Assembly: GCA_937900185.1 (NCBI GenBank) | Contig: CALCCW010000229.1 | Coordinates: 1 to 53,830, forward strand | From: an uncultured candidate division Zixibacteria bacterium | Lineage (GTDB): Bacteria > Zixibacteria > MSB-5A5 > GN15 > FEB-12 | Reading direction: 5' to 3' | DNA length: 53,830 nt | Shown here: positions 11,984 to 38,332 of the stretch, in pieces | Numbering within the stretch: the first letter of the stretch is position 1 | Layout: each line of letters begins with the position of its first letter | Program-made: the position numbers and the translations under genes | Notes under the pieces: model-generated | The model's input: only the letters and a program-made list of their open reading frames with translations | Database searches by the model: none | Told to the model about the DNA's origin: nothing

Positions 11984-12496
11984 TTACACCATATTATATT
12001 CAAGTTTCTTAATACCATTTGAAATACCAGTATTGATATTGTTAAGTAATTCCTTATCTGATATGTTATCAGATAAAACGATAGCAATCACATCTATAAT
12101 TGCTTTGATATTGTCTTCAGTAATTGCAACACGTAAATCCATACTGTGAATTGAAGAAACGATTTTTTCGATTTTCAACGCCAGTTCAGAAATGTTACCT
12201 GCCTCCATATTTAGTTCATAAGCATCGGCACATTGATTTAAACGTTCTTCCATTAATACCCGAAGTATTCCAAGTTCCTCTGCGAGGCTCTTTGTATTCG
12301 GTAAGGATGTTTTTTCATTTATACGTTCAGCCCATTTATTACGATAATATGCTTTGAGTGCTTTTTTCTTTTTATTGATATCAATTATGTTTCCACCGTG
12401 TCTGGCACAATACGGAGATTCTCCAGATTCACTTTTATAAGCAGGACGGTTGCAACCTTCCTTTTGACAAGTATTATCATTTTTAATAAATTCCAT
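11984..12496 (-). CDS. Terminase small subunit candidate (N-terminal zinc ribbon)
   Basis: 170 aa directly upstream of terL and the first gene after the large non-coding region. The call rests on position only. Confidence 0.4.
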   Translation of the reverse strand: MEFIKNDNTCQKEGCNRPAYKSESGESPYCARHGGNIIDINKKKKALKAYYRNKWAERINEKTSLPNTKSLAEELGILRVLMEERLNQCADAYELNMEAGNISELALKIEKIVSSIHSMDLRVAITEDNIKAIIDVIAIVLSDNISDKELLNNINTGISNGIKKLEYNMV

Positions 12497-13040: not shown

Positions 13041-13183
13041 CACAATATAAGTCATTGCAACACAATAACATAAGTCCATACCAATAGATATAATAGTAAT
13101 AATGAATGATAAGTCATTGCAAATCAAGCACTTGCAAGAACACGTATGCCGTGAAACCGGTATTTCGGTACATTCCAATGCTG

Positions 13184-13275
13184 ACGTTTCCAATCGTTAA
13201 CGCATAATCACTGATAACACATTGACGTTTGCTCAGAGCAATTTCGCCGTTTAACGTTTACGTTTCCAATCGTTA
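13184..13275. repeat. Two copies of ACGTTTCCAATCGTTA (13184-13199 and 13260-13275)
   Basis: Perfect 16-bp direct repeat. TAAGTCATTGCAA is also duplicated, at about 13049 and about 13109. Confidence 0.9.
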
Positions 13276-13490
13276 CTGAATCTCAAAAATGTCGGGGACA
13301 GATACCGATGAAACGCATTTTTTAACACTGGTATTATTGCGGTGTGAAACAGCGTTTAAATACGGTAAACAGCTATTTAGAGGTGAAATAGTGTTTAATA
13401 TCACCACGCTTGATACCAATATTACACTTGCTTGATACCGGTATTAACGTGGTTATATCATCGCTATAGGCACTCATATTAGGCACAGTC

Positions 13491-13628
13491 ATTATTATTA
13501 ATTAATACCAATATTAATACCAATATTAATTATTATTAATTATTATTAATTAATCTCAATATTAATTAATCTTAATATTAATCGCTATATTAATTAATTG
13601 CTATATTAATTAATCCCAATATTAATCG
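13491..13628. repeat. Extremely AT-rich degenerate tandem array (TAATACCAATAT x2, TAATTATTAT x2, then five units ending in ..ATAT, mostly TAATTAATCNCAATAT-like)
   Basis: About 140 bp with very few G/C. Candidate DNA-unwinding/iteron region. Confidence 0.85.
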
Positions 13629-13697
13629 TACTCCATGAATCCTGGTATTGCACGATACCCACATAGCTCTATCGTAAATTACCCAGCAAGATTAAGC

Positions 13698-13727
13698 GGA
13701 TCTAACTTCATTTCAGAAATTAGATCC
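13698..13727 (-). terminator. Hairpin (8-bp stem GGATCTAA/TTAGATCC, 14-nt loop) just after the stop of 13736..14563
   Basis: Called on position and stem. There is no clear U-run, so terminator function is uncertain. Confidence 0.3.
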
Positions 13728-15351: not shown

Positions 15352-16155
15352 TCAAAAACAGAGCTTTATAAACTCTATTTCTGAGTGCGATAAAGCCGTA
15401 ACGTTTTTTAACTGCCTTGAAACCTCTCTAATTTTCGCAAGTGTCCCACTTTTATCGGCTAAGCTACCGTAAAATTCCGCATATCGGCAGTTATTTATGC
15501 CATTGAACGCAAACTGGTGAATCATACCCGTATTGATATTAGTACATAAACTATATATATCTAACTGCACGCCCCAGCCTGTTCGGGAAAAATCAGTTTC
15601 TCTCTCAACGTGTTCACGTCCAGTCAAATCACCAGTTATGTAAGTAGGCATTTTACCAGTACTCACCCGCCTACCACTATAATAACCATTGACTTTCCAG
15701 TCCAATATTATCTTAGTCCCATCTTCATATAGTCCGAGAAAGTCCGGATAACCACCAACTATTATATCATTATGACCAACTTTAGCTGTAATTAACACTT
15801 CCATTGTTGCTTGAATCAACTTACCATGCTTATTACGAAGCACACGCTTCAGCATTCCTGCATCCACATACCCGCAAAACACTTTTTCAGCGGTTTCTTT
15901 CAGGTTCAGATGTGGTGCTACTTGATCATCGTAACATTCATCGAACGACTTATACGGGAAGATTACATCGCTAACAGCCTGACATATTTCCCATTTGACA
16001 AACGCATCGAACGCACTACCCAGCCCCATCGCTGGTGTTTGTTTCATTCGTGGTACGTTCATTATATAGCTTTTATACCAGTCTTCAACATTAGAATAAA
16101 AACTGTTAATACAACTCGGCGAAAGGAACTCTCTTTTCTTCTGTTCAATGCCCAT
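15352..16155 (-). CDS. RecB-family PD-(D/E)XK nuclease
   Basis: GGYPDF...ILDWK (D...DxK core) followed by QLDIY (QxxxY). The track start at 16185 was replaced by ATG 16155, which has an AGGAG RBS. Confidence 0.75.
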   Translation of the reverse strand: MGIEQKKREFLSPSCINSFYSNVEDWYKSYIMNVPRMKQTPAMGLGSAFDAFVKWEICQAVSDVIFPYKSFDECYDDQVAPHLNLKETAEKVFCGYVDAGMLKRVLRNKHGKLIQATMEVLITAKVGHNDIIVGGYPDFLGLYEDGTKIILDWKVNGYYSGRRVSTGKMPTYITGDLTGREHVERETDFSRTGWGVQLDIYSLCTNINTGMIHQFAFNGINNCRYAEFYGSLADKSGTLAKIREVSRQLKNVTALSHSEIEFIKLCF

Positions 16156-16170
16156 ATTATTTTCTCCTAT

Positions 16171-16246
16171 ATTATACAATGCCAATATTATACAATGCCA
16201 ATATTATACAATGCCAATATTATACAATGCCAATATTATACAATGC
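16171..16246. repeat. 16-bp tandem repeat ATTATACAATGCCAAT x4 plus one 12-nt partial copy
   Basis: Copies at 16171-86, 16187-202, 16203-18, 16219-34 and 16235-46. It fills the ligase-nuclease intergenic gap and contains the ligase stop codon. On the minus strand each unit reads ATTGGCATTGTATAAT. Confidence 0.95.
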
Positions 16247-17138: not shown

Positions 17139-17164
17139 TACTATTTCCTCCTGTGGCTTAGCCA

Positions 17165-18975: not shown

Positions 18976-19011
18976 AATAATTCTCCTGTGGCTTAGCCAA
19001 TATCAATATTA

Positions 19012-19863: not shown

Positions 19864-20072
19864 TTTACAATCTCTGTATTGAACCATTTTATTGCTTCTG
19901 TAAAATCATAAGTCTTTTTAACTTCATTTTTAGTACGAAGTATAAAAACTTTTTTCCATCCAACTACTCTAACTATTGAGAAGAACCCTTCTTTTAAACT
20001 CCATTTATCCATAGACGGTGAATGATAATTACGTTTACCTACATTATCAAGATGCTTTAATAATTCTTTCAT
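19860..20072 (-). CDS. Hypothetical protein, tandem paralog B
   Basis: MKELLKHLDNVGKRNY... The first 16 residues are identical to paralog A. Confidence 0.6.
   Translation of the reverse strand: MKELLKHLDNVGKRNYHSPSMDKWSLKEGFFSIVRVVGWKKVFILRTKNEVKKTYDFTEAIKWFNTEIVK
19868..19881 (-). promoter_or_regulatory. Start-associated motif CAATACAGAGATTG (variant), 4 nt before ATG 19863
   Basis: Minus-strand read: CAATACAGAGATTGTAAAATG. Confidence 0.6.
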
Positions 20073-20076
20073 TTTA

Positions 20077-20090
20077 CAATCTCCGTATTG
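20077..20090 (-). promoter_or_regulatory. Start-associated motif CAATACGGAGATTG, 4 nt before ATG 20072
   Basis: Minus-strand read: CAATACGGAGATTGTAAAATG. Confidence 0.65.
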
Positions 20091-20336
20091 TTATGCTATT
20101 TCAAATTTACCGTCTTCATTAAAACGTAAAAGAGACATCTCAATATCAGTCCTGCTTGTAAGTACATAATACAATGGGTCAACATCAAAATATGCTACAC
20201 ATTTATGTTCCTGAAAAAGATTAACATTGTGTTCAATCTCTTCATAAGTTTCAGATTTTTTTACATATTTTACTTTTAATCCACTGATTAAAGTAATTTG
20301 CTCTTCATTCAATTTACTACTTGTAACTACTAACAT
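20091..20336 (-). CDS. Hypothetical protein
   Basis: 81 aa; GAGGAG RBS. Confidence 0.6.
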   Translation of the reverse strand: MLVVTSSKLNEEQITLISGLKVKYVKKSETYEEIEHNVNLFQEHKCVAYFDVDPLYYVLTSRTDIEMSLLRFNEDGKFEIA

Positions 20337-20521
20337 TTTTCAAACTCCTCTACAATGGAATAAATATCAATATTTATTCCATTGAGTTTATAAGTGATAT
20401 AAATTCTACCACGATAATTATTCATAATACATTCAACGATATTTTTACCAAAGACGGCTGAACCGTCATTCATATTCACACCGTTGAATTCTTCAACTAA
20501 ATCACTAAAACACATTACCAT
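20330..20521 (-). CDS. Hypothetical protein
   Basis: 63 aa; GAGGAGGG RBS. Confidence 0.55.
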   Translation of the reverse strand: MVMCFSDLVEEFNGVNMNDGSAVFGKNIVECIMNNYRGRIYITYKLNGINIDIYSIVEEFEKC

Positions 20522-20631
20522 TTTATTGCCCTCCTCAAAGATTTAATTCCGCACTGCCCCAGCAACCACAAAATCAATACGAATATTGTAAATGCTCCGC
20601 TAATCATTGTCCCTATTAATAATACTTCCAT
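20515..20631 (-). CDS. 38-aa membrane peptide
   Basis: Not in the track. MEVLLIGTMISGAFTIFVLILWLLGQCGIKSLRRAIKW, overlapping both neighbours. Confidence 0.45.
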   Translation of the reverse strand: MEVLLIGTMISGAFTIFVLILWLLGQCGIKSLRRAIKW

Positions 20632-20873
20632 TATAGAATTTCTCCTTGATAAAAGACATAACAAGGTATGTCATATTCAGATGCAAACTTCATGAGTACC
20701 GGACAATCTGTCTGGAAAAGGAAAACATTATATTTATTTTCAATACACAAATTTAATAATTCATGCCAATTCATATTGTTAATGTTTTCATAACGGTGTT
20801 TACGTTTACCAATAAAACCATTAACCATTTCCTGTCTTTCTTCGCCAGTTCCGTCATTGATTACGATAGTCAT
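20631..20873 (-). CDS. Hypothetical protein
   Basis: 80 aa; ATGA overlap with the upstream small ORF. Confidence 0.6.
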   Translation of the reverse strand: MTIVINDGTGEERQEMVNGFIGKRKHRYENINNMNWHELLNLCIENKYNVFLFQTDCPVLMKFASEYDIPCYVFYQGEIL

Positions 20874-21013
20874 TTTATCACCATAATATCATAGTCCAGA
20901 CAAAGAAGAATTATTCTGTCAAGCATTCTTCTTGCCTCGAAATTTCCACGTGCAATACCCATATTGCATTTCGTTACCAGACGTTCCAACCGACATTTTG
21001 TGTAACCGCTCAT
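20870..21013 (-). CDS. 47-aa hypothetical protein
   Basis: Not in the track. AGGAGG RBS; MSGYTKCRLERLVTKCNMGIARGNFEARRMLDRIILLCLDYDIMVIK. Confidence 0.5.
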   Translation of the reverse strand: MSGYTKCRLERLVTKCNMGIARGNFEARRMLDRIILLCLDYDIMVIK

Positions 21014-21053
21014 TTGATTACCTCCTGTGCATATCAATATCAATATTGAAAAT

Positions 21054-21097
21054 AAAAAAGGGTTAAACTATACATAGCATATAGTTTAACCCTTTTT
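21054..21097. terminator. Bidirectional intrinsic terminator (13-bp GC-containing core stem extended by A/T pairs, 7-nt loop)
   Basis: AAAAAAGGGTTAAACTATA-catagca-TATAGTTTAACCCTTTTT. An A-run precedes it and a T-run follows, so it works on either strand. Confidence 0.8.
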
Positions 21098-21120
21098 AAA
21101 ACTATATGCTTTTTATTTAG

Positions 21121-21188
21121 CATACTGATATTGATATACGATTTTGCAATATCAATATTGCAATACCGCATTGTCAATATCGCATTGA
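21121..21188. repeat. Array D1: five tandem ~14-bp CAATAY-N-RTATTG-type units
   Basis: CATACTGATATTGA / TATACGATTTTG / CAATATCAATATTG / CAATACCGCATTGT / CAATATCGCATTGA. Confidence 0.85.
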
Positions 21189-21218
21189 CAAACTGAACCT
21201 TTTTCTAGTTCATAAAAT

Positions 21219-21246
21219 AATATACAGCCCGCAATAATAAATTCAA
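21219..21246 (-). promoter_or_regulatory. Sigma70-like promoter TTGAAT-16 nt-TATATT (minus strand), reading into array D1 and the terminator
   Basis: Minus-strand read: GAGCTTGAATTTATTATTGCGGGCTGTATATTATTTT. Confidence 0.4.
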
Positions 21247-21303
21247 GCTCTAAACTAAAAATAATTGAATCTTTTTTTATATTATATATTGAATTTGCGT
21301 GTA
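21239..21303 (+). repeat. Conserved block Z, copy D
   Basis: AAATTCAAG...TAAAAATAATTGAAT...TTGAATTTGCGTGTA is similar, in the same orientation, to 31718-31784. Confidence 0.75.
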
Positions 21304-21332
21304 GCATAAATCGTGCCAACTAATATTGGGAT

Positions 21333-21360
21333 TAATACCGTATTCACAATACCGTATTGC
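21333..21360. repeat. Array D2: TAATACCGTATTCA + CAATACCGTATTGC
   Basis: Two tandem 14-bp units overlapping the last codons and stop of 21344..21814. Confidence 0.85.
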
Positions 21361-21814
21361 GAAAATGTAGCAACACAAACATATCATTTAGTTGTAATAT
21401 TGGTATTGCTTTTATAGCTGTATCTATACACAAGAACTCTTCTTTAATATATGCTTTACAAATCATATACAATTCATTGTTTGAATCTATTGCACGTTCA
21501 GCAAGTTTCTTAATATTGATATTGTTTACCGCTCCGGAAAAATAATTTACATCTATATCTCTATGTAATAACCACGCTACACTTTCCCACGCCTCACTGT
21601 AAACAAGAAATTTAACTAATATATCAACATTCTCTATCTCTCTGGGAAAGTCTGCTATCTTATAACCGAGCCGGTAATAGAGATACTGAAATAATAAAAC
21701 TTCTGCACTCCGATACATTCTATTACCAATAAATGAGTAGAAGAGCGGGTAAAAATTCTCTGCTCTAATATCTCTTTTACTCGCCATCTTTTTAATTCGT
21801 TTTATTTTTATCAT
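21344..21814 (-). CDS. Hypothetical protein
   Basis: 156-aa ORF; no motif recognised. Confidence 0.6.
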   Translation of the reverse strand: MIKIKRIKKMASKRDIRAENFYPLFYSFIGNRMYRSAEVLLFQYLYYRLGYKIADFPREIENVDILVKFLVYSEAWESVAWLLHRDIDVNYFSGAVNNINIKKLAERAIDSNNELYMICKAYIKEEFLCIDTAIKAIPILQLNDMFVLLHFRNTVL

Positions 21815-21838
21815 TTGTAAACCTTACTGGTTTTATCA

Positions 21839-22252
21839 CTAACTGTTAAGTGCCTCATAAACACCTTTAACTTTTTCACATTTAGTGCCTTCAACATTAA
21901 AGTGTTTAGCCAGTGCATTTAGTCTTAGCGGTAGTTCACGGTCTCTAGCAACTTCCATTATATCTATGAATTTACTGATTCTGACTCCTGCGTTAAGCAA
22001 GAATTTAGCAGTAAATTTACCACAGTGAAACACTGCTATATCATCCTCAAGTATTCCACCATATTGTTGTTTAAACTCTTCACGCTCCATACCGGTATTG
22101 CAGTCTAAGCCATTAAATTTCATAGCCTTTTCATCCGGCTCTTTTATTGCCTTAATATTTATTGTTGTCATATCACCATCTAGTATATTTAACTGAATCA
22201 GTTCATGGTCTTGTCCTCTTAAGCCCGTTGATTCAATACTTACGAATTTCAT
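21839..22252 (-). CDS. DnaQ-like 3'-5' exonuclease fold protein, possibly degenerate (putative)
   Basis: MKFVSIESTGL resembles the ExoI DxETTGL motif but lacks the Asp. ATG 22252 is preceded by GGAGCAATT; the track start at 22318 is TTG. Confidence 0.4.
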   Translation of the reverse strand: MKFVSIESTGLRGQDHELIQLNILDGDMTTINIKAIKEPDEKAMKFNGLDCNTGMEREEFKQQYGGILEDDIAVFHCGKFTAKFLLNAGVRISKFIDIMEVARDRELPLRLNALAKHFNVEGTKCEKVKGVYEALNS

Positions 22253-22478
22253 AATTGCTCCTTTTTTAAATTTAACTTTACAAATATAATACTCACCAAA
22301 TTGTGTTTTACTGTGCAATTCCAGTACTTCTGTTACTGATAAATCATCCAGTATTTCTACTAATGCTTTATGTGTTGGATATTTTGAAACAATGCCAATA
22401 TTATTTCATCATCTTCACAGTTACTATGATCTCTATCATAAAGTATATACATAATTGCTCCTTGCGGTAATACCGCGA

Positions 22479-24554
22479 TTAATGTGTGTCAATCCATGAT
22501 GACATTTCTTGTTTCCATGTAATGCCAAAATGCTTAATCAATTTACGTGTCTCACTTACATAGGTTTTAACAATGCCATCAACATCTGCCGGAACTGAGT
22601 TATAACAGAGAATTTCATCATGAATATTCATAGGCATAACTACTGGTTTACTTACACCGTAGAGTTGCAATGCCCATATTTCTGCTTGTAACATCTTCAT
22701 CAATTCCGCACCGGTTGATTGCACAACATGATTAACTGCCTGCCTACCGCAACGTGATTGCATCCCATAGATTGCACCCCACAATGCTGATATTGTCGCA
22801 TTTTTCGCAGTCTGTTTACCTTTATTTGTTGTCCTAATTACCATAATCCCATCATTTAAATTATCTATTTCCTGCAATGCCTCCTTATACTCTTTAATTA
22901 TTTTCTCTTCTAATGTAAAATACCGTCTATGACCTAATAGACTGGCAACATAGTTCCGTCTAAACTCTTCCCTATCCTCATGCGTTGTAAAATCTTCCAT
23001 AATCTCAGCACGGTTTTTAGCAAATCCATCATATCTAATATGGAACTTTTTCTCTATAGTTGTTGCAATGCTCTCTTTTACACCCATTCGGAATGTAAGA
23101 GTATGAGCATTTCCACCATAGAACAATGCGTATGTTCCGTTTTTACCTAATACATATAAATCATTCTGACTACCTTTAGTTGCTACAACTTCATCATAGC
23201 TTTTACCAAATGCTTCAGCCGCAAGGAATACCGGTATTTTATAACCATTAGTTAAATCAATGTCCATCTGTTTATCTTTATGCACTGCTTGAGCAATACT
23301 AATCTCGAAAACATCTGCATCACCTCCCGATAAAACATAATTATCAGACTTATCATTGAATGTAAATATCTTCCTAATTGTTTCTTCTCTCGCAATGCCT
23401 TGCGGATTGATTTTACCGCCACCACTCATTCTGTTAGTGAGTGTACCGCAAATGCGGAATTCCGGATAAAACCTTTTAGCATGGAGCAATTTCTCCATAA
23501 GTTTACAGCGTGATTGTGCCTTCCTTGCCTTGATAACGAGTTTAGCCCTTTCCGCCGGTTCGCCGTCCATAAGTTTCGCAATATTTTGCAATGTCAATGC
23601 CTTAGTATCCTGAATCATTACAGCATCTAATTCTTCCATAGGCTCTGTTACATATTCCAATACTGCTCTTGGTGCTGTCGGTGCTAATCTTTTATCGTTA
23701 TTATACTGGTCATACTGTCTTTGTACTTCATCAATATCAATAGCAAAACCTTTACATTTAACATTTGCCGCCATTATTGCAAGTTCATTATCATAATGCC
23801 CGCATTGTAAATTAAAATCTGCTTTTAAGTTACGGAGATACTGGATATCATTTTTAGCATATTGTATAGCTATATCATTAAACATCCAATGGTCTATCGA
23901 ACGTTCAAGTTTATGTTTCTCCATGCGATTTTCCCAATGACAATATCCGCCTTCATCTTCCCAATACATATCTAAGTCAATAGTACCTTCACCATAGATT
24001 TTCCTAATTAAACGTTTCAACGGCAATCCCGGTTTCCATGCAAAATAAACATTGACAAATCCATCAATATCACCATCGCTTATCTTCCAGAACTCTTTTT
24101 TATCTCCTATTTGTATGTCGCTGAAACATTCATTCAATATCAGTATTACGTCATCAACCATCGAGCCGGGAATCTTATAAATCGTTGGTCGTTTACGAGC
24201 CATTAAATCTTGGAAATGAGTTTTACGGAACTCAAGCATAATATCCAATGCCCCTTGCGGACGCAGAAACCAATCAGTTTGGAATGTCTGATTTATTGCA
24301 TCGAACTGGTCTAACAACATTTCATAAGGCTCTATCTGTTTACAAATGTTATATAATTTAACAAGCATGAACCAGTCAAATGTTAAATTATAGGCACAGA
24401 TTTCATGCTCGCAAAACATTTCAATCAATGCCATAATTGTTTTAGGTGTTTCATACCATAAATTCATAATCTCGATATTGCCATCATCTATAGCATATTG
24501 TATAGTTATTGGCAATGTATTAAGACTATATGTTTCTGTATCTAGGTAAATCAT
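22479..24554 (-). CDS. Family A DNA polymerase with N-terminal 3'-5' exonuclease
   Basis: IYLDTETYSL (ExoI), GGDADVFEISIAQ (motif A-like) and NIHDEILCY (motif C). Start set to ATG 24554, which has an AAGGAG RBS. Confidence 0.9.
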   Translation of the reverse strand: MIYLDTETYSLNTLPITIQYAIDDGNIEIMNLWYETPKTIMALIEMFCEHEICAYNLTFDWFMLVKLYNICKQIEPYEMLLDQFDAINQTFQTDWFLRPQGALDIMLEFRKTHFQDLMARKRPTIYKIPGSMVDDVILILNECFSDIQIGDKKEFWKISDGDIDGFVNVYFAWKPGLPLKRLIRKIYGEGTIDLDMYWEDEGGYCHWENRMEKHKLERSIDHWMFNDIAIQYAKNDIQYLRNLKADFNLQCGHYDNELAIMAANVKCKGFAIDIDEVQRQYDQYNNDKRLAPTAPRAVLEYVTEPMEELDAVMIQDTKALTLQNIAKLMDGEPAERAKLVIKARKAQSRCKLMEKLLHAKRFYPEFRICGTLTNRMSGGGKINPQGIAREETIRKIFTFNDKSDNYVLSGGDADVFEISIAQAVHKDKQMDIDLTNGYKIPVFLAAEAFGKSYDEVVATKGSQNDLYVLGKNGTYALFYGGNAHTLTFRMGVKESIATTIEKKFHIRYDGFAKNRAEIMEDFTTHEDREEFRRNYVASLLGHRRYFTLEEKIIKEYKEALQEIDNLNDGIMVIRTTNKGKQTAKNATISALWGAIYGMQSRCGRQAVNHVVQSTGAELMKMLQAEIWALQLYGVSKPVVMPMNIHDEILCYNSVPADVDGIVKTYVSETRKLIKHFGITWKQEMSSWIDTH

Positions 24555-24583
24555 ATTGACTCCTTTAGAACTCTTCATCCTGA

Positions 24584-24844
24584 CTATATTCGTCTTGAAT
24601 TTAATGCTCCCTTTACACGTTTACACTCCCGTAATGTTATTTCTGTTTTTGCGTTAAAATACATTAATACTGATGCTTGATTACCGCAATAGGGGCACTT
24701 TCTTGTGAGATTATTAACAGGACAATAACCATGTGTACTTACTTTCTCACAGGTATTACATTTAGCATCCACGCTCTTACATGTATACCTATATGGTAAT
24801 TGCCCTGTTGCTTTATAATGTAAATGTTCAATAAATGTCATCAT
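24584..24844 (-). CDS. Zinc-ribbon protein
   Basis: 86 aa; CNTC...CPYC. Confidence 0.55.
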   Translation of the reverse strand: MMTFIEHLHYKATGQLPYRYTCKSVDAKCNTCEKVSTHGYCPVNNLTRKCPYCGNQASVLMYFNAKTEITLRECKRVKGALNSRRI

Positions 24845-24911
24845 AATTAACCTTTTTATATTATGCTTTATGTATTCTCCCGCACGGCTGGCAATAACCT
24901 GTTCGATATTT

Positions 24912-25277
24912 TCATACAGTAGGGTTATTATTTTTTAAGATTTTCCGGAGTTGTTTAACCTCTTTTAATGCTTCAAGATATTTCTCCTGATAAGGTACTA
25001 GATTTGCTGGTGTTCCGTTACGTACACGCTTAAAGATAATATTAGTTTTATCCTTTCGGGCAGCAGCACGACAAGCCCCGAAAAAACATGGTATTACTCT
25101 TGTTATTCGTAATAAACCACAATTATGCATGCTGCATGACGCTCTCAAGTAACCTTCATCATGGAAATAGCAGCCATGACATCTTAAATAATGGTCTTCT
25201 CTTTTCTGGTCAACCACTTTGAATTTCTGATCAAATAATGCCAGTATTGTCCCAATCTCATGTGTTTTACATCTCAT
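24912..25277 (-). CDS. Cys-rich hypothetical protein
   Basis: The track start at 25283 is TTG. ATG 25277 is preceded by CAATACGGAGATTGACA. Confidence 0.55.
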   Translation of the reverse strand: MRCKTHEIGTILALFDQKFKVVDQKREDHYLRCHGCYFHDEGYLRASCSMHNCGLLRITRVIPCFFGACRAAARKDKTNIIFKRVRNGTPANLVPYQEKYLEALKEVKQLRKILKNNNPTV

Positions 25278-25280
25278 TGT

Positions 25281-25294
25281 CAATCTCCGTATTG
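25281..25294 (-). promoter_or_regulatory. Start-associated motif CAATACGGAGATTG, 3 nt before ATG 25277
   Basis: Minus-strand read: CAATACGGAGATTGACAATG. It overlaps the CCA end of the tRNA-like element. Confidence 0.65.
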
Positions 25295-25410
25295 GTGGGA
25301 GCGGTAGGGATTTGCACCCTACATGGTTATTCTATGAGTACCCTAGTTACTTAGTTCACCAGCCAGCAACCTCTTCTCTTGTTAACGTCTACCTATTCCG
25401 CCACACTCCC
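25293..25410 (-). ncRNA. 118-nt tRNA-like element: tRNA-Leu-like acceptor stem, D-arm, T-arm and encoded CCA, but a non-canonical 62-nt core
   Basis: 5' GGGAGUG pairs with CGCUCCC, followed by A-CCA. UGGCGGAAUAGGUAGACG closely resembles the bacterial tRNA-Leu D-arm. The T-arm is GUAGGG-UGCAAAU-CCCUAC. No 5-bp/7-nt anticodon arm could be found between positions 27 and 88. Confidence 0.45.
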
Positions 25411-25448
25411 GTATTGTTATTTATATCTCTTATATGTTATTTTAACTT

Positions 25449-25817
25449 TCATTGTTTAATCTCCTTAACGTGTATCGTCCCAACTACTTCGCACTTTGCT
25501 ATATCAATCCACTTCTGATATAACGGCATACCGGTTTTCCATTCTTTTGTATTTTCGTTTTTAATCCACCAACGAGATTCCTCTTCGTTCCATAATACAG
25601 AGAATATCCTTCCCATTCTGCCTTTGATTTTATCGCCATCGGAAATCAGAGTTCCATTACAGTCTTTAATGCCCGTGCAAAATTCAATAACTCGCCCTTT
25701 TGTGTGCGGACGATTATTATGCCAGAGATTACCTGAGGTATCAATTTTCATTATGTCTTTTTCATAATTAGAATGATATTCACACCATACTCTGAATCTT
25801 AATCTATCGTTATTCAT
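25449..25817 (-). CDS. YopX-family protein
   Basis: RFRVW..., FCTGIKDCNGTLISDGDKI, VVGTIH; typical YopX pattern. Confidence 0.65.
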   Translation of the reverse strand: MNNDRLRFRVWCEYHSNYEKDIMKIDTSGNLWHNNRPHTKGRVIEFCTGIKDCNGTLISDGDKIKGRMGRIFSVLWNEEESRWWIKNENTKEWKTGMPLYQKWIDIAKCEVVGTIHVKEIKQ

Positions 25818-25821
25818 CGCT

Positions 25822-25835
25822 CAATCTCCGTATTA
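25822..25835 (-). promoter_or_regulatory. Start-associated motif TAATACGGAGATTG, 4 nt before ATG 25817
   Basis: Minus-strand read: TAATACGGAGATTGAGCGATG. Confidence 0.65.
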
Positions 25836-25928
25836 TTTACCTAACCATTGTTCTATTGATATTACTGCACAAAGAAGTATAAATAATAATATTGCTATTC
25901 CGATAGACAATAAAAAATCAATAAACAT
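25833..25928 (-). CDS. 31-aa membrane peptide
   Basis: Not in the track. MFIDFLLSIGIAILLFILLCAVISIEQWLGK, preceded by GACGGAGATTAAAG. Confidence 0.45.
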   Translation of the reverse strand: MFIDFLLSIGIAILLFILLCAVISIEQWLGK

Positions 25929-25945
25929 CTTTAATCTCCGTCTTA

Positions 25946-26140
25946 TTACTCGTAACGCTCACTCTTAAGATATTCAGCAATGCTTTTAATATCTTTCTTA
26001 CCCCAATTATCTGCTGACTTAACTGTTGCACCTGCCGCATCAAGTATAGCACAAACACGACAATATGGGCATCCGTCACAATCAGTATCACATCTATTAT
26101 AGATTTCTCTTAATTCTTTCTGTTGTATAAATATTCTCAT
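25946..26140 (-). CDS. Small Cys-rich protein
   Basis: 64 aa; CDTDCDGCPYCRVC. Confidence 0.55.
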   Translation of the reverse strand: MRIFIQQKELREIYNRCDTDCDGCPYCRVCAILDAAGATVKSADNWGKKDIKSIAEYLKSERYE

Positions 26141-26496
26141 TTTTTATCTCCTATAGTAATTAATTTCATTGCTTCTTTTTTGGTTGCAATACGAGCATTG
26201 TCCCACCAGTGTCCATTAGCATAATATTGAGAACTGCAATGTTCAGTTACCACAAAAATACTACCTTCATCTTTATCATATACCATGCATAATTTACCTA
26301 CAAGCTCTTCACCTATAGGTTTGTCCCATTCGGGACACCAGTAAGCATTACTATTATGCATAGGTTGAGGTGTTAAGATCTCAACCCACCCTTCTACAGG
26401 TGTATACATAATAAGTGTTTTACAATTATATAAAATCTTTCGTTCTTCAGGAGTTGTCATTCCAAACACAACACCTTTTCTGTTTTTGTCAATCAT
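26137..26496 (-). CDS. Hypothetical protein
   Basis: The track start at 26502 is TTG. ATG 26496 is preceded by AATACGGAGATTGATT. Confidence 0.6.
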   Translation of the reverse strand: MIDKNRKGVVFGMTTPEERKILYNCKTLIMYTPVEGWVEILTPQPMHNSNAYWCPEWDKPIGEELVGKLCMVYDKDEGSIFVVTEHCSSQYYANGHWWDNARIATKKEAMKLITIGDKK

Positions 26497-26499
26497 AAT

Positions 26500-26513
26500 C
26501 AATCTCCGTATTA
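26500..26513 (-). promoter_or_regulatory. Start-associated motif TAATACGGAGATTG, 3 nt before ATG 26496
   Basis: Minus-strand read: TAATACGGAGATTGATTATG. Confidence 0.65.
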
Positions 26514-26524
26514 TTTAAATGACA

Positions 26525-27376
26525 TTATGCAAAATCCGGTACAGTATAAGGTATATCATAAATGTCAAGTTCTTTCTGGATTGCTTGGTGAAATTCCAAA
26601 TCCGAAACTTCAGCATTAACCCAACCTAAAGTTACATTTATAATATTAGGTCCGAGTAAACCATGTAACATTTCCTGTATGTCATGTATTTCTCCAGGTC
26701 TACGTAACTTCTTTTTACTCTTGGGTTTAGAGTCTTTAAACTTATCAATATTAACCTTTTTATCGCCCTTATTAGTCTTAATAACACGACATAATTCATA
26801 CTGTTTCTCAGGCTCTTTACGAAGAGTATATAAATCTCTAATATTATTTGTTGTAAATTTACAACGCAATACCTCTTCCTGTATATCTTCAGGAATTGTC
26901 GTAAACATGTTGCGTACTTGACACCAACCGAAACTCATGCCAATTTTATCTGCAATCTGTTGTAAACTCATACCAGTATTGCGTAGAGTTTCAACACCTT
27001 TAGCTTCTTGAGCAATGTTTAAATCTTCTCTTTGAACATTCTCTGTTAAGTTAGTGAGAATCATTTGTGTTAATGATAAGTCTTTCAATATACAATCAAA
27101 CTCTTTATCACCGTTTACTAACAATGCTGTATAACGTCTATGTCCTGCTACAAGCTGGTATTGGAAACCATTCTCTGTAGCGACCTCACTTCTACTAACA
27201 ATAAGCGGATTCTGTAAGCCGTTTTCAGCTATATCAGCGGCTAATGCCAGTGTTTTTGGTGCTGAGGGATTTACCTTACCACGACAGTTAAAATCCCAAT
27301 CTACGAATAATTCCTTTTTCTTGACTTTAATCAGTTGCATTCCTTTAACTTTTTCCATTACTTTAACTTTTTCCAT
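26525..27376 (-). CDS. ParB/Srx-domain protein with HTH (ParB-like 2)
   Basis: NPLIVSR...YQLVAGHRRYTAL, LTENVQREDLN, and the HTH MSLQQIADKIGMS. AAGGAG RBS. Confidence 0.8.
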   Translation of the reverse strand: MEKVKVMEKVKGMQLIKVKKKELFVDWDFNCRGKVNPSAPKTLALAADIAENGLQNPLIVSRSEVATENGFQYQLVAGHRRYTALLVNGDKEFDCILKDLSLTQMILTNLTENVQREDLNIAQEAKGVETLRNTGMSLQQIADKIGMSFGWCQVRNMFTTIPEDIQEEVLRCKFTTNNIRDLYTLRKEPEKQYELCRVIKTNKGDKKVNIDKFKDSKPKSKKKLRRPGEIHDIQEMLHGLLGPNIINVTLGWVNAEVSDLEFHQAIQKELDIYDIPYTVPDFA

Positions 27377-27415
27377 TTTCTTGCTCCTTTATAGCTTTTA
27401 ATACATACACTACAA

Positions 27416-27625
27416 TTAAATTAAACCTAACCTTTCTTTCATCATTTTACGTTTACCTTGTGGACTCTTACAGAAATCAATTTTCTTCTGTTTAGACTCT
27501 TGTAATTCTTCCAAAGCAATATCAGTATCTGTTGTATAACCACAATACCGACATTGTATATGGTTGTCATTAACTACTGCTTTTTTACCACACTTTTCAC
27601 ATCTGATATTAAAATTATATATCAT
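27416..27625 (-). CDS. Zinc-ribbon protein
   Basis: 69 aa; CEKCGKK...CRYCGY. Confidence 0.55.
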   Translation of the reverse strand: MIYNFNIRCEKCGKKAVVNDNHIQCRYCGYTTDTDIALEELQESKQKKIDFCKSPQGKRKMMKERLGLI

Positions 27626-27906
27626 GACAACTCCTTCACATATTTTTCAGACTCTAATATCAATGCATGTTTACCGTCATACCAAGCAGTATTTACCCAC
27701 TTATAAAATATATCATAAGTTCCTGCACCTATATCATTAGGATCACATTCATGCAGTTTTGTCTTTTTAGTATAGACTTGAATTATTTTAACTTTCTCTA
27801 ACCACCTTAATTCATTATCTATAATTAGTGGCAATATCAAAAACTTCTCTTTAACTCTAACTGTATTTTCAGCAATAACCTTTATTTTTTTAAATCTGTA
27901 TTTCAT
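27622..27906 (-). CDS. Hypothetical protein
   Basis: 94 aa, preceded by CAATACGGAGATTAAAA. Confidence 0.6.
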   Translation of the reverse strand: MKYRFKKIKVIAENTVRVKEKFLILPLIIDNELRWLEKVKIIQVYTKKTKLHECDPNDIGAGTYDIFYKWVNTAWYDGKHALILESEKYVKELS

Positions 27907-27909
27907 TTT

Positions 27910-27923
27910 TAATCTCCGTATTG
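27910..27923 (-). promoter_or_regulatory. Start-associated motif CAATACGGAGATTA, 3 nt before ATG 27906
   Basis: Minus-strand read: CAATACGGAGATTAAAAATG. It starts right after the SNF2 stop codon. Confidence 0.65.
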
Positions 27924-29453
27924 TTATGACCTATTCCATTCTATTTTTTCAAGCTCTAACATCATTTCCTGCATAGTAACTTTCTGTAATTTTTTCTTAT
28001 TCTCTAAATTACAGCGTACATACTTATCTGTAGGTAAATGATATAAGTCAATGATATTTGCTCCTAAACATCCTGGTCTGTGAATACGGTCTTCACTTTG
28101 CATACGTGATTCACCATCAAAATCATTACTGTAATAAATGATAGTGTCACTAGCAGTTAAGTTCAAGCCCGTGCCACCGGATTTAGGGTGATTAACGAAC
28201 GCTATTTTCTCATCAATACTGGTATCCATAAACTTCTTAAGTGTTTCTGCGATATCAGCATCAGCGGCATTAATTGTCATCCAACCTAAACTGGTCATTC
28301 TCTCACGAACCCATTTCACAGACTCAATATATCCTGCAAATATCACAACACGGTTTTTTCCAGTAACTAATTCTTCTAATATCTCAATCTTAGGATTATC
28401 AGTAACACGAATTGCTTTACCATCGCTATAAATAAATCCATCAGATAGTTGCCTACATTTATTTAATGCTTCAATAGTAGTACCCGCATTCTTCAATAAG
28501 AAGTTATAACGTTGATACACTTTACCGGTCATCGGTAACACATATTCCGTATATACTTTCTCCGGTAAATCGAGACATTTATCTTTGTCAATGAATATGG
28601 TTATTTTATCTTCCAACGATTCACGGAATTTATTTAATTCATCTTCTTTCCATGATTCGACCTTACTGTAAGAATGACTCTGTTCCGTGCCATCATCCTC
28701 ACTTAAATCTACTGTTACTACATTTGCTACTCGTTCACGGAATTTGTAAATATCGCCTTCAGGGATAAATCCGGGACACAATGTTTCAATTTGATTCCAC
28801 CAATCTAATGGGTCTTTCGGTGCAGGAGTACCTGTCATTGCAATAATGAATGGGTTATCATGTTCTTCTCTCATAGCATCAGTTAAGTGCATAGCCGATT
28901 GACTGCGAATACTGGTATTATTTTTAATCTTATGTGACTCATCAAATATCACTCCCAACGGGGCTACACCATCATAATTCTTTAAGTGTCTTGTTAAGCC
29001 TTCATAAGTCTGGAAGAATGGATATACATGACAATCCCATTTTTCCATTTCCATCTTAACAGATAATAATGCTGAACGTGGTGCTATATACCACCAATCG
29101 CTGACACCGCTATGTTCCATTATTTCTATTGCAGAGAGAGTTTTACCGACACCCATTGTAGCCGCTATAAAACAAATATGCTTATTTAAAGCGAATTTAA
29201 CTATATCAGCTTGGTGTTGATAAATTGGTCTTGTAAAAGTTATATCAATATTGGTATCATTTTCCCATTGTTCATAGACATTAATACCCTGTATAGCTGA
29301 TAATACAAAACGATTGTGTGGGTTGTCAAGAACTTCCCATACTTTAATTTCAGGTTTCCATCTTGCACTTTTAAGTTTCTTGACTTTTTCAATTAGGCTT
29401 GGAGAATAACCGAATTTAAGAATAAGGTTAGTTCCTTTTTTGAAGATATTCAT
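27924..29453 (-). CDS. SNF2-family (SF2) helicase/ATPase
   Basis: ATMGVGKT (Walker A), IFDESHKIKN (DExH) and GGTGLNLTASDTIIYY...QSEDRIHRPG (motifs V-VI). The track start at 29486 is TTG; ATG 29453 follows GAGGA. Confidence 0.9.
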   Translation of the reverse strand: MNIFKKGTNLILKFGYSPSLIEKVKKLKSARWKPEIKVWEVLDNPHNRFVLSAIQGINVYEQWENDTNIDITFTRPIYQHQADIVKFALNKHICFIAATMGVGKTLSAIEIMEHSGVSDWWYIAPRSALLSVKMEMEKWDCHVYPFFQTYEGLTRHLKNYDGVAPLGVIFDESHKIKNNTSIRSQSAMHLTDAMREEHDNPFIIAMTGTPAPKDPLDWWNQIETLCPGFIPEGDIYKFRERVANVVTVDLSEDDGTEQSHSYSKVESWKEDELNKFRESLEDKITIFIDKDKCLDLPEKVYTEYVLPMTGKVYQRYNFLLKNAGTTIEALNKCRQLSDGFIYSDGKAIRVTDNPKIEILEELVTGKNRVVIFAGYIESVKWVRERMTSLGWMTINAADADIAETLKKFMDTSIDEKIAFVNHPKSGGTGLNLTASDTIIYYSNDFDGESRMQSEDRIHRPGCLGANIIDLYHLPTDKYVRCNLENKKKLQKVTMQEMMLELEKIEWNRS

Positions 29454-31593: not shown

Positions 31594-31649
31594 CAATACC
31601 AATATTGCAATATCCATATTACAATACCGTATTGACAATACCGTATTAA
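31594..31649. repeat. Array F1: four exact-phase tandem 14-bp units
   Basis: CAATACCAATATTG / CAATATCCATATTA / CAATACCGTATTGA / CAATACCGTATTAA. Confidence 0.9.
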
Positions 31650-31717
31650 TTTTGTGAGCGTAATTAAAAATCACACTCAAAAATCTAACTCAAATATAAG
31701 TTACCATTCATTATTAA

Positions 31718-31784
31718 AAAGTCAAGTGTTATTAGTAAAATAATTCAATATTTTTTCCTTTATAATATAATGAATTTGCGTGTA
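31718..31784 (+). repeat. Conserved block Z, copy F
   Basis: AAAGTCAAG...TAAAATAATTCAAT...TATAATATAATGAATTTGCGTGTA is similar to 21239-21303. It contains TTCAAT-16 nt-TATAAT on the plus strand. Confidence 0.75.
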
Positions 31785-31895
31785 ACACGTTAAACTTAAA
31801 AGTCAAGTCAATTACTGAAAATACTGTTTTATTTTTTCAGTAAGGAAAAACAGTAAATTGATAAAACGTTTAAACAGAATAACTTATACCGGAAA

Positions 31896-32145: not shown

Positions 32146-32165
32146 ATTGCTTAGAATTGTTTAGT

Positions 32166-32220
32166 TAATACCGTATTGACAATACCGTATTGTAATTGTT
32201 CTAAGACAATACTGGTATTA
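32166..32220. promoter_or_regulatory. Array F2: TAATACCGTATTGA / CAATACCGTATTGT / (13 nt) / CAATACTGGTATTA, overlapping the probable rightward early promoter
   Basis: Contains TTGACA (32176-81) and TTGTTC-17 nt-TATTAA candidates. It lies 35-90 nt upstream of ATG 32254. Confidence 0.6.
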
Positions 32221-32253
32221 TTAACTGATGTTTGGAAACGTCAAGGAGAAATC

Positions 32254-35177: not shown

Positions 35178-35458
35178 AATATTCATGTGAATCATGTAAT
35201 AAAGATATGGTTATTAGCAAGACGGTCGAAGGCAATATTCCGGAAATAATGCCATGCCCATTTTGTGGCGGTCTAACACATTTTATTAACAGTTATGACA
35301 TCGAACCTAAATTTGAGTTTTATAAACCGGAGACCAATGCTGAGATTAAAAAACTTTGTAGTTCTCGTAAACAGTTTGATATAATTAGTAGATATGTTAG
35401 ACAAGGAAATTTGTTAATTAAACCATTGATAGGAGAAACAGATGAAGATTTACATTAG
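35174..35458 (+). CDS. Zinc-ribbon protein
   Basis: 94 aa; CESC...CPFCGG. Confidence 0.55.
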   Translation: MKYSCESCNKDMVISKTVEGNIPEIMPCPFCGGLTHFINSYDIEPKFEFYKPETNAEIKKLCSSRKQFDIISRYVRQGNLLIKPLIGETDEDLH

Positions 35459-35735
35459 TGGAAAAATCACCGGTGATGACAATGCCATATATAAATTCAC
35501 AAGAGCGGAACAACGTTTAAAAGGTCAGTATCCCAATGCTGTAATTGTAAACCCGCTCAAACCGTATTTACCGGAGGTGTGTTGGCTCGATTTCATTATA
35601 CTTGATATAATGAAATTGTCTACATGCACACATATTTGTTTATTGCCAGATTATAGTGAAAGTACTGGAGCAATAATAGAATCATTAATAGCTGATAAAC
35701 TTGGTTTAGAAACTGTTTTTATATTGCCTAACTAG
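35442..35735 (+). CDS. DUF4406 / nucleoside 2-deoxyribosyltransferase-like protein
   Basis: MKIYISGKITGD...NP...CLLPDYSESTGAIIE matches the DUF4406 pattern as I recall it. Confidence 0.65.
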   Translation: MKIYISGKITGDDNAIYKFTRAEQRLKGQYPNAVIVNPLKPYLPEVCWLDFIILDIMKLSTCTHICLLPDYSESTGAIIESLIADKLGLETVFILPN

Positions 35736-35951: not shown

Positions 35952-36126
35952 CTTAACAACATTAGCTGACAAAACTGAATACAAAGAATGGTTATTAGAA
36001 AAGGCTAAAGAGGAATGTAAGAAATGTAAGTATGATTGTAAGTTGAAGAATGTTAAAAGTCATTGTTTAAATTATGAGGAGAAGAAAAATGAGTTTAGTA
36101 GACACACTTTTAAGTATGGACGATAG
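35944..36126 (+). CDS. Hypothetical Lys/Cys-rich protein
   Basis: 60 aa; overlaps the start of the methylase gene. Confidence 0.45.
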   Translation: MDNLTTLADKTEYKEWLLEKAKEECKKCKYDCKLKNVKSHCLNYEEKKNEFSRHTFKYGR

Positions 36127-36910
36127 TGAAAATGTCGATGAACATAAAACTATTATTAAAGCACCATTTGGTTGGTTAGGTGGTAAAGCATTTATGTGTG
36201 ACCAAATAAATGAGATAATGCCTTTAAGGAAAATTTATGTTGAACCATTCGGTGGCAGTGGTATAACATTGCTTAAACGTAGACAAAGTGATATAGAAGT
36301 TTTTAATGACCGCAATTCCGGTATTACTGATTTTTATCTTACAATACAAGATGACCCACAATATATCATTGATGGTATTAATGATATGATTTATAGTAAA
36401 GAATTATTTTACTACTACAAAAATAATTGGCAAACCATAACTGATAGGAAACAACGTGCATTGATATGGTATTATGTTATACGTACTAGCTGGGGCGGTA
36501 AAGGATTATACTTTGGCTTAGAAAAGACTAAAAACGTAACTAATCGTTTATATACAAATCTAAAGTATTTCGCAGAAATTAATAAACGGTTGCGTAATGT
36601 CATAATTGAAAATCACGATTATAAGTCATTACTTAAATATTATGATTCGCCGGATACAGTATTTTACCTTGACCCACCATATACCGGTTGTGATAATCAT
36701 TATGAATACCAAATAAATCACACTGAATTTTTAGAGCTAGTTTTTAGTTTATCCGGATATGTGTTAGTTAGTAATTTTGAATCAACAGAATACTTAGCTT
36801 GTGATTGGAATGAAACTATAATGGTTAAGCAACGTTACTCAATGCATAAAGAAGGTAAAAATAATAACGATAGAGTAGAAATGCTCTATATTAAGGAATC
36901 TAACAGTTAA
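36089..36910 (+). CDS. DNA N6-adenine methyltransferase, D12 (Dam) class
   Basis: PFGWLGGK, YVEPFGGSG (SAM binding) and FYLDPPYTG (DPPY). ATG 36089 follows GAGGAG; the track start at 36074 has no RBS. Confidence 0.85.
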   Translation: MSLVDTLLSMDDSENVDEHKTIIKAPFGWLGGKAFMCDQINEIMPLRKIYVEPFGGSGITLLKRRQSDIEVFNDRNSGITDFYLTIQDDPQYIIDGINDMIYSKELFYYYKNNWQTITDRKQRALIWYYVIRTSWGGKGLYFGLEKTKNVTNRLYTNLKYFAEINKRLRNVIIENHDYKSLLKYYDSPDTVFYLDPPYTGCDNHYEYQINHTEFLELVFSLSGYVLVSNFESTEYLACDWNETIMVKQRYSMHKEGKNNNDRVEMLYIKESNS

Positions 36911-37745: not shown

Positions 37746-37967
37746 ATGAAAGAACAGTTATCTAAAATATTATGGGATAAGAGTATTAGTATTAATAGAA
37801 TAGTTGATGTAATGGGTATTCATCGTCATACTGCTCACAGAATGTTAGAAAACCCTGAACAAGTATCATTAGAATTATTTATAGATACAATACTGAGATT
37901 AGGAATTGAGTTTGAAGTTAAAAATGGTAAGTTTATCTTATCAGCTAAAAATAAGGATTTATTATGA
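37746..37967 (+). CDS. Helix-turn-helix DNA-binding protein
   Basis: 73 aa; SINRIVDVMGIHRHTAHRML is HTH-like. Confidence 0.5.
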   Translation: MKEQLSKILWDKSISINRIVDVMGIHRHTAHRMLENPEQVSLELFIDTILRLGIEFEVKNGKFILSAKNKDLL

Positions 37968-37981
37968 GAGAAGGTGAAATA

Positions 37982-38332
37982 ATGTATAAAGATTACGGTA
38001 ATTGTAGTAGTGAACAAGAGATAATAGATAATGATAAAATGGTAACAGAGGCTAGTGGAGGTAAAAAAGCAGACGGTGGTAAGATTCGGTGGAGCTTGCT
38101 CTTGTGGGATTCGCTAATACCGGTAGTACGAGTGCTTATGTTTGGTGCTAGTAAATACGGTGAAGAGAATTGGCAAAAAGTATCATCGAGACGTTATCGG
38201 GATGCATTATTGCGTCATATTTTAACAGATGAAGAAATTGATAGTGAAACTGGTGAGCCACATTATGCTCATGCTATATGTTGTCTATTGTTTCTATTAT
38301 GGTTAAAAAAGCATACCGGCAACAGGAGCTGA
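37982..38332 (+). CDS. DUF5664-type protein (dATP/dGTP pyrophosphohydrolase-like)
   Basis: GGKIRWSLL...VLMFGASKYGEENW...YRDALLRHIL...ETGEPHYAHAICCLLFL. ATG 37982 follows AAGGTG. Confidence 0.55.
   Translation: MYKDYGNCSSEQEIIDNDKMVTEASGGKKADGGKIRWSLLLWDSLIPVVRVLMFGASKYGEENWQKVSSRRYRDALLRHILTDEEIDSETGEPHYAHAICCLLFLLWLKKHTGNRS

Follow-up and report, generated by a model that had tools for sequence, protein, structure and literature searches.

A start-associated 14-nucleotide motif in a marine phage is probably one form of a dispersed DNA palindrome

Several early genes of the phage contig CALCCW010000229.1 begin a few nucleotides downstream of a conserved 14-nt sequence that encloses the Shine-Dalgarno (SD) sequence. 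The question raised by this locus is why the bases flanking the SD core are conserved. The stretch of DNA that was analysed, hereafter the window, is a complete 53.8-kb contig; it comes from marine metagenomes and belongs to an unclassified siphovirus-like phage. Our analysis indicates that the SD-type motif is probably the form of a dispersed 14-bp DNA palindrome that is able to carry an SD sequence, and is likely a protein-binding site on the DNA rather than a separate translation element. A protein-binding site is favoured over a translation signal because the motif is one version of a palindrome that is scattered more than 100 times.

The motif, YAATACGGAGATTR, occurs in five exact copies in the window (0 expected), and no match was obtained in 100 shuffled sequences. 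All of the copies are on the minus strand and end 3-4 nt short of an ATG, at exactly the five starts that were named in the initial annotation of this DNA (Table 1). The motif is written as (Y)AATACGGAGATT(R), in which AATACGGAGATT is the 12-mer core. Both of the variants that had been reported were also found. CAATACAGAGATTG lies within the 3' end of the coding sequence (CDS) of an upstream paralogue and is still a member of the palindrome family described below. In AAGACGGAGATT, a T-to-G change falls on a palindrome position whose variants are at chance level. However, the proposed relatives of the motif before 19561 and 3887 have just ATTGATT, located downstream of the SD, in common; they do not match the motif, and we treat them as ordinary starts. 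The genes starting at 20072 and 19863 are tandem paralogues (121 nt at 81% identity, the first 71 nt at 97%). This duplication includes the motif, and the two copies therefore represent one event, giving five independent good copies and one degenerate copy.

Contact with the stop codon of the upstream gene had been claimed for three copies and is present in two of them. The copy at 27910-27923 directly adjoins the TAA (27924-27926) that ends the SNF2 helicase gene, and the first three bases of the copy at 25822-25835 (25833-25835) are the TAA stop of a 31-codon open reading frame (ORF). The third copy (25281-25294) instead overlaps a tRNA-like element, at the CCA end that this element encodes; no stop codon is located there.

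GGAG is found 3-13 nt upstream of 45 of the 81 gene starts, which indicates that the host uses SD sequences. The general SD context was considered as the cause of the flanks and was ruled out by the start-region profile of the remaining 40 GGAG-type starts. In these, GGAG is preceded by A in 80% of cases and by C in 2%, and no preference for AATAC is seen. The flanks are thus not shared by gene starts in general, which was the simpler account raised by the initial annotation.

The origin of the flanks is found in the whole genome. In an unbiased word count, CAATAC/GTATTG, CAATAT/ATATTG, and palindromes composed of them were strongly over-represented. The strict pattern AATAY-NN-RTATT is present in 49 copies (2.1-2.4 expected). 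When the half-site positions were relaxed singly, a change was tolerated at position 4 only (C gave 36 copies where 1.9 were expected, and G gave 22 where 2.4 were expected). The pattern extended in this way, AAT-V-Y-NN-R-B-ATT, is present 114 times in 53.8 kb, compared with 8.9 expected and 17 in the largest shuffle. This density corresponds to about one site per 470 bp (2.1 per kb) over the whole window and on both strands. The same pattern with spacers of 0, 1, or 3 nt is at chance level. Two perfect half-sites are present in 49 sites (2.3 expected) and one perfect plus one variant half-site in 58 (4.9 expected), whereas the number of sites with two variant halves, 7, hardly exceeds chance (2.4 expected). 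In the flanks of the family, C or T predominates at the 5' side and G or A at the 3' side, and CC/GG is its third commonest centre (16 sites). The window contains two spacing classes, 13-bp and 14-bp palindromes. The orientation of the asymmetric members relative to transcription is not significantly biased (33 versus 19).

The 114 sites are distributed over CDSs (82 sites, 72%) and intergenic DNA (32 sites). The intergenic share of 28% compares with 9.4% of the genome, an approximately threefold enrichment in short gaps, and 26 sites are located 0-60 nt upstream of starts (10.9 expected). Codon usage as the source of the palindromes was ruled out by two nulls that keep the codon structure: 79 copies in CDSs were counted, whereas permuted codons gave 7.9 and resampled synonymous codons 19.3. 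No strict palindrome is present within 24136-28908, the stretch that holds most of the SD-type copies.

The 12-mer fits the palindrome consensus at all specified positions, and the outer Y and R of the motif are the usual flanks of the family. The flanks that had been called unexplained are therefore those of a 12-14 bp DNA palindrome. A link to CAATAC-N-GTATTG had been noticed before, and the two are related; however, the motif is not a half-degenerate 13-bp site but a regular 14-bp member with a 2-nt spacer. The 12-mer is also an ordinary palindrome member away from starts, because one copy (CAATACGGAGATTC) is antisense within a CDS.

Two overlapping constraints explain why each base of the motif is fixed. 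In longer gaps, the palindrome is placed 14-35 nt upstream of an ordinary AGGAG (e.g., before 17750, 18975, 21013, 29453, and 31416), and in gaps of 17-28 nt it overlaps the SD. With a stop-to-start gap of only ~17-28 nt, some bases have to serve both the palindrome and the SD. The degenerate centre of the palindrome accommodates GGAG in one register only (positions N N R B). In this register the 3' half-site is the tolerated variant AGATT; therefore, the 5' half-site must be a perfect AATAY. An enumeration requiring one perfect half-site leaves two sequences, AATACGGAGATT and AATATGGAGATT, and the latter contains ATG. Since T at position Y would create this ATG, the half-site is AATAC and AATACGGAGATT is the sole solution. 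All 14 bases of the motif are accounted for by these two constraints without an RNA-level function. Moreover, the motif has C before GGAG where other starts mostly have A; the SD optimum is thus overridden, as would be expected of a DNA constraint.

We compared the window with related sequences. DNA and polymerase protein searches of GenBank phages gave no close relative of the window phage. A protein search of IMG/VR gave relatives of the polymerase at 30-33% only and none with the two ParB queries, and polymerase scans of species genomes and JGI metagenomes gave no match. The identical sequence is present in three further marine assemblies and, at low depth, in one public marine DNA run. A related phage, L010 (69% amino acid identity in ParB and 64% in the polymerase), has 5 family sites (0.38 expected). 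Two of them are SD-type copies, AATACGGAGATTG, found when the motif was sought in related genomes as had been suggested. Both are located 2 nt before an ATG, and one overlaps a TAA stop; the remaining 3 family sites are not of the SD type. The genes that follow the two copies have no homologue in the window, nor do the seven small genes that separate ParB from the polymerase in L010.

Family sites without SD-type copies were found in L011 (ParB 66%; 3 sites against 0.37 expected), L013 (ParB 57%; 5 against 0.44), L137 (helicase 67%; 4 against 0.45), and L005 (polymerase 61%; 4 against 0.70). The SD-type motif is absent from the 40 starts examined in L005, L011, L013, L136, and L137. Other related phages have palindromes of the same or similar geometry with different half-sites. 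L006 (polymerase 47%) has 26 copies of TCAG-N4-CTGA over 11.8 kb (0.25 expected) and no SD-type copy. Several of its sites start directly after TAA stops (3977, 9061, and 9429), and tandem TCAGCGGCTGA pairs with a 14-bp period are located upstream of its ParB. L003 (polymerase 31%) has 23 copies of GGTA-N4-TACC (0.48 expected) and 7 further copies with a spacer one base shorter, altogether 30 sites over 22 kb. L001 (polymerase 33%) has 11 copies of GATT-N5-AATC (1.2 expected), and L016 has its own dispersed palindrome, GATAGCGTTATC. Two ParB-like ORFs are encoded upstream of the polymerase gene in each of L001, L003, L006, and L015. An exact-pattern scan of IMG/VR for the motif plus ATG gave >119 single matches, with 1.7 sites per kb at the top locus (two in a 1.2-kb locus). 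We treat these matches as chance because none is near the 2.1 per kb of the window. Contigs of a related phage from the same marine run (run X1) match the genes 24584..24844 and 24912..25277 at ~90-95% identity; their homology ends at the start codons 24847 and 25277, and an ordinary GGAGG-type SD is located upstream.

Genes for terminase, portal, and tape-measure proteins are present in the window phage. Its early region encodes a family A DNA polymerase, an SNF2 helicase, a primase-helicase, a ligase, a D12-class methyltransferase, and two ParB-like proteins. The latter two are the only recognisable sequence-specific DNA-binding proteins found in the phage. Both have ParB_N and HTH_ParB (helix-turn-helix, HTH) domains and align with solved ParB, Spo0J, and Noc structures in the PDB over the CTPase and HTH domains (E values of 2e-16 and 4e-9). 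The two sequence boxes of ParB-283 correspond to GxxRxxA and ENxQRE. The sequence of the sites co-varies with the lineage while the two ParB genes persist, and the recognition helix is conserved among the AATAC-type phages and different in L006. A Pfam screen of early-region proteins revealed no ParA-like domain. If the ParBs bind the palindromes, the system resembles Noc or KorB and not a partition system. ParB-dependent thymine dioxygenase systems (PMC13229309) were also considered and rejected: their ParBs are without a DNA-binding domain, and no dioxygenase domain was seen among the proteins screened.

From these similarities we infer binding by a dimeric protein, the ParB identity of the binder, and an effect of the binding. 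The palindromes would be double-stranded DNA sites of a dimeric phage protein, for which the two orphan ParB/Noc/KorB-like HTH proteins appear to be the best candidate readers. The sites CAATAYNNRTATTG, CAATACCAATATTG, CAATACCGTATTG, and CAATACGGAGATTG would then be bound. The SD-embedded copies would be ordinary members of this set, the centre of which may be used by the mRNA as a ribosome-binding site.

Some of the sites form tandem arrays (Table 1). The array at 31594-31650 is ~180-235 bp upstream of the start of ParB-312, and altogether six palindrome sites of the 13- and 14-bp classes are located within ~235 bp upstream of this start. A promoter-like element of ~50 nt (ACACGCAAATTCA..TATAT) is present twice in the window, at the position in Table 1 and at 31737-31787, and also in L005 (3077-3131). 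Both copies in the window are bracketed by tandem palindromes with a 14-bp period. At 16145-16246, every 16-bp unit holds a family site (CAATGCCAATATTA) and a TATAAT hexamer. Binding at the arrays round these promoter-like repeats, together with that at the many single sites, could make the palindromes operators or clamp-loading or marking sites.

Table 1. Positions of the SD-type motif copies, the ParB-like genes, and the tandem palindrome arrays in the window.
Feature	Position	Strand	Associated gene or context
SD-type copy CAATACGGAGATTA	27910-27923	minus	ATG 27906, 94-aa ORFan
SD-type copy TAATACGGAGATTG	26500-26513	minus	ATG 26496, 119-aa ORFan; 11 nt past ParB-283 stop
SD-type copy TAATACGGAGATTG	25822-25835	minus	ATG 25817, YopX-like, 122 aa
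SD-type copy CAATACGGAGATTG	25281-25294	minus	ATG 25277, 121-aa ORFan
SD-type copy CAATACGGAGATTG	20077-20090	minus	ATG 20072, 70 aa; TAA 20091-20093 abuts
Paralogous variant CAATACAGAGATTG (GGAG to AGAG)	19868-19881	minus	ATG 19863
Degenerate variant AAGACGGAGATT	25933-25944	minus	ATG 25928, 31-codon membrane-like ORF
Off-start copy CAATACGGAGATTC	12408-12421	plus	Antisense within CDS 11984..12496, no start after
ParB-312, ParB/Noc-like, 312 aa	30478-31416	minus	ParB_N and HTH_ParB; adjoins palindrome-rich divergent region
ParB-283, ParB/Noc-like, 283 aa	26525-27376	minus	HTH, GHRRYTA and ENVQRE boxes; amid SD-type copies
Four tandem palindromes, 14-bp period	31594-31650		Downstream of early promoter-like repeat
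Two tandem 13-bp palindromes and one 14-bp site	32165-32220		Before first plus-strand gene (ATG 32254)
Early promoter-like repeat copy (21258-21306)	21133-21360		Tandem palindromes on both sides (21332-21360 and 21133-21191)
Five tandem 16-bp units TATAATATTGGCATTG	16145-16246		Directly upstream of SD of gene 15352..16155

Several points weigh against this interpretation. The link between the ParBs and the palindromes is circumstantial, and the difference of the L006 recognition helix would also be expected from the overall divergence of this phage. L014 and L015 have two ParBs, yet no enriched palindrome was detected in them. More than 100 sites in 54 kb far exceed any described operator or parS set. 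Sigma-70 promoter scans in the array regions were not above chance; for this reason, operators are something that we infer from the arrays. The intergenic enrichment could result partly from weaker coding constraint rather than function. Finally, the identity of all 7 independent SD-type copies would also be explicable by copying or by an extra selection at the RNA level.

A wider proposal is possible, and we put it forward as rather doubtful. This group of phages may mark the whole genome with >100 lineage-specific 12-14 bp palindromes that are read by two orphan ParB/Noc-like CTPase paralogues. The half-sites observed are AATAY, TCAGN, GGTAN, and GATT, in two spacing classes. The sites would be selected even within CDSs, at synonymous and non-synonymous positions. 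By loading or marking, they may serve to silence or organise the whole genome or to let the phage recognise its own DNA. The SD-embedded copies would then represent this system squeezed into minimal gene junctions.

Among the other explanations of the motif, a junction for cassette shuffling survives best, although it is unlikely. The shared 14-mer would provide microhomology for swapping small accessory genes among related phages. The interval between ParB and the polymerase does contain wholly different small genes in the window and L010, with the motif at gene boundaries in both. In addition, an 8-nt direct repeat (CAATACGG) flanks the tRNA-like element, and the homology of the X1 contigs stops exactly at the start codons 25277 and 24847. 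However, the homology between the window and L010 ends at the 3' end of ParB and at the polymerase start instead of at motif copies, and the X1 relative is without the motif at its break point. A length of 14 bp is short for homologous exchange, ~100 copies inside genes are left unexplained, and any such use is possibly a side effect of the palindrome rather than its purpose. The shared 14-mer may nevertheless have a minor part in gene exchange.

Less probable still is a dedicated start-associated RNA element, the flanks of which would be recognised by an RNA-binding factor of the phage or host, or would adjust ribosome loading on early accessory genes. The motif fits the definition of a start-associated sequence (SAS; PMC3203893), being located 3-4 nt before the ATG of non-structural genes on one strand, and its 12 nt are identical in all copies, including the two in L010. 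A 4-bp RNA stem presenting the SD in its loop had been proposed; however, the minimum free energy of the 14-mer is 0 kcal/mol, and the values for its contexts range from 0 to -3.8 kcal/mol, with structures that vary between contexts and no stable hairpin. The closing pair is not kept (T..G and C..A), and no compensatory changes are found in the stem. The flanks add no pairing with the usual anti-SD, and C replaces the A that is common before GGAG. The translational operator suggested by the initial annotation is therefore unsupported, since the hairpin does not form and the flanks fit a DNA palindrome that is found on both strands, with one copy of the motif antisense inside a CDS. The absence of the motif from the starts examined in the other AATAC-type relatives also argues against an RNA element, as does the X1 homologue of the 121-aa gene, which has an ordinary GAGGAGG SD instead.

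It is very improbable that the copies are functionless relics that were carried along when genes or intergenic segments were duplicated. Those at 20090 and 19881 do belong to a tandem paralogue duplication, but the others share only the 14-mer and an A-rich start region, no extended flanking homology was found, the associated proteins are unrelated ORFans, and the same 13-mer is present in L010 amid unrelated DNA. RNA cleavage of the kind performed by T4 RegB, whose target is the GGAG in the SD sequences of early genes, would agree with a motif centred on GGAG before early genes, but it is hardly credible because no RegB-like or other ribonuclease domain was found among the screened early proteins and the palindrome family would be left unexplained.

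The tRNA-like element beside the copy at 25281-25294 deserves a separate description. It is a 118-nt element on the minus strand (25293-25410) that resembles tRNA-Leu, with a 7-bp acceptor stem, a Leu-type D arm, a T arm with the odd loop UGCAAAU, and an encoded CCA. A long arm takes the place of the anticodon and variable arms. ARAGORN (including its intron and tmRNA modes), Rfam at the gathering threshold over the whole window, and Rfam at E<=10 over 25200-25520 gave nothing credible. The right copy of the CAATACGG repeat is the 5' part of the SD-type motif. A 20-mer, AAATAACAWTACGGGAGTGT, occurs twice on the minus strand (0 expected): at 25403-25422, the 5' junction of the element, and at 24623-24642, inside the ORF 24584..24844. 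An 11-codon mini-ORF (MKVKITYKRYK; 25416-25451, minus strand) with the SD AAGGAGATTAAACA is located between the YopX-like gene and the element.

Other repeats were also observed. A second start-adjacent repeat, GGCTAAGCCACAGGAG, which consists of a small GGCTAAGCC hairpin and an SD, is present on the minus strand at 17148-17163 and 18983-18998, before the starts 17138 and 18975. The region 13150-13700 is part of a ~1.2-kb gene-poor gap that separates the early and late modules. It contains an AT-rich field with six palindrome family sites (13496-13650) and the repeat AACGATTGGAAACGT, and could be an origin or packaging region. TTGGAAACGT is found three times (0.14 expected), at 13184 and 13260 on the minus strand and at 32232 on the plus strand, and TAAACGT-type words such as GTAAACGTAA number 32 genome-wide (11.5 expected). 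These words may represent a further regulatory motif. On the plus strand, a DUF4406 protein (35442-35735), a D12-class adenine methyltransferase (36089-36910), and a protein with the N-terminal domain of dATP/dGTP diphosphohydrolases (37964-38332) are encoded close together. This group hints at nucleotide-pool manipulation or DNA modification.

The interpretation of the motif as a palindrome that carries an SD can be compared with known systems. The SAS of cluster K mycobacteriophages, GGGATAGGAGCCC, is a conserved stretch of ~13 bp with the SD core, located 3-7 bp before start codons, and was described as non-palindromic and essentially confined to gene starts (PMC3203893). The likeness to this SAS that had been noticed at the outset holds for its position. 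Both are short sequences with an SD core, a few bases before the ATG of non-structural genes in one orientation; both sometimes overlap the upstream stop and are conserved over related phages before different genes. Their outer bases are symmetric as well (GGG..CCC in the SAS and CAAT..ATTG in the window motif). However, the window motif belongs to a true palindrome family with ~100 other copies on both strands and inside genes, only GGAG is shared between the two, and no ESAS-like 17-bp inverted repeats accompany the window motif. The two overlapping constraints of a DNA palindrome and an SD, which together fix every base, provide a worked explanation for a start-associated sequence. The same test is applicable to the unexplained cluster K SAS, whose outer bases are also symmetric. 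For annotation, conserved flanks round an SD need not signal translation control.

The core of the KorB operator is TTTAGCGGCTAAA (PMC11790492). It has the same 6-N1-6 geometry and central C/G as the 13-bp array sites CAATAC-S-GTATTG, and its central AGCGGCT is also found in the L006 sites. Like KorB, Noc, and parS sites, the phage sites are 13-14 bp palindromes clustered beside a parB gene and round promoter-like regions, with others far from promoters. Unlike them, they have two spacing classes, are mostly located in CDSs, and are far denser (114 in 54 kb). Plasmid RK2 carries ~12 KorB operators, and ~70 Noc-binding sites are present on the 4-Mb chromosome of B. subtilis. A search of the literature available to us for a phage ParB with dispersed sites gave no relevant match. 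The palindrome sequence changes between related phages while the two orphan ParB-like genes stay. If the ParBs bind the sites, ParB/Noc/KorB-type biology would be extended to whole-genome coverage of a phage chromosome.

Dispersed sites of the repressor type are known from other phages and, together with those of the ParB family, are what the palindromes resemble most when taken as a set. The stoperators of cluster A, which are the L5 repressor sites, are asymmetric 13-bp sequences that are oriented with transcription and present in a few dozen, mostly intergenic copies. As with stoperators, P1 C1 operators, and phiC31 conserved inverted repeats, many sites are dispersed in the window, often in short gaps near stops and starts. 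In contrast to stoperators, the window sites are symmetric, without significant orientation bias, and mostly within genes. The palindromes are thus denser than the sites of described systems, and they are kept against coding constraint.

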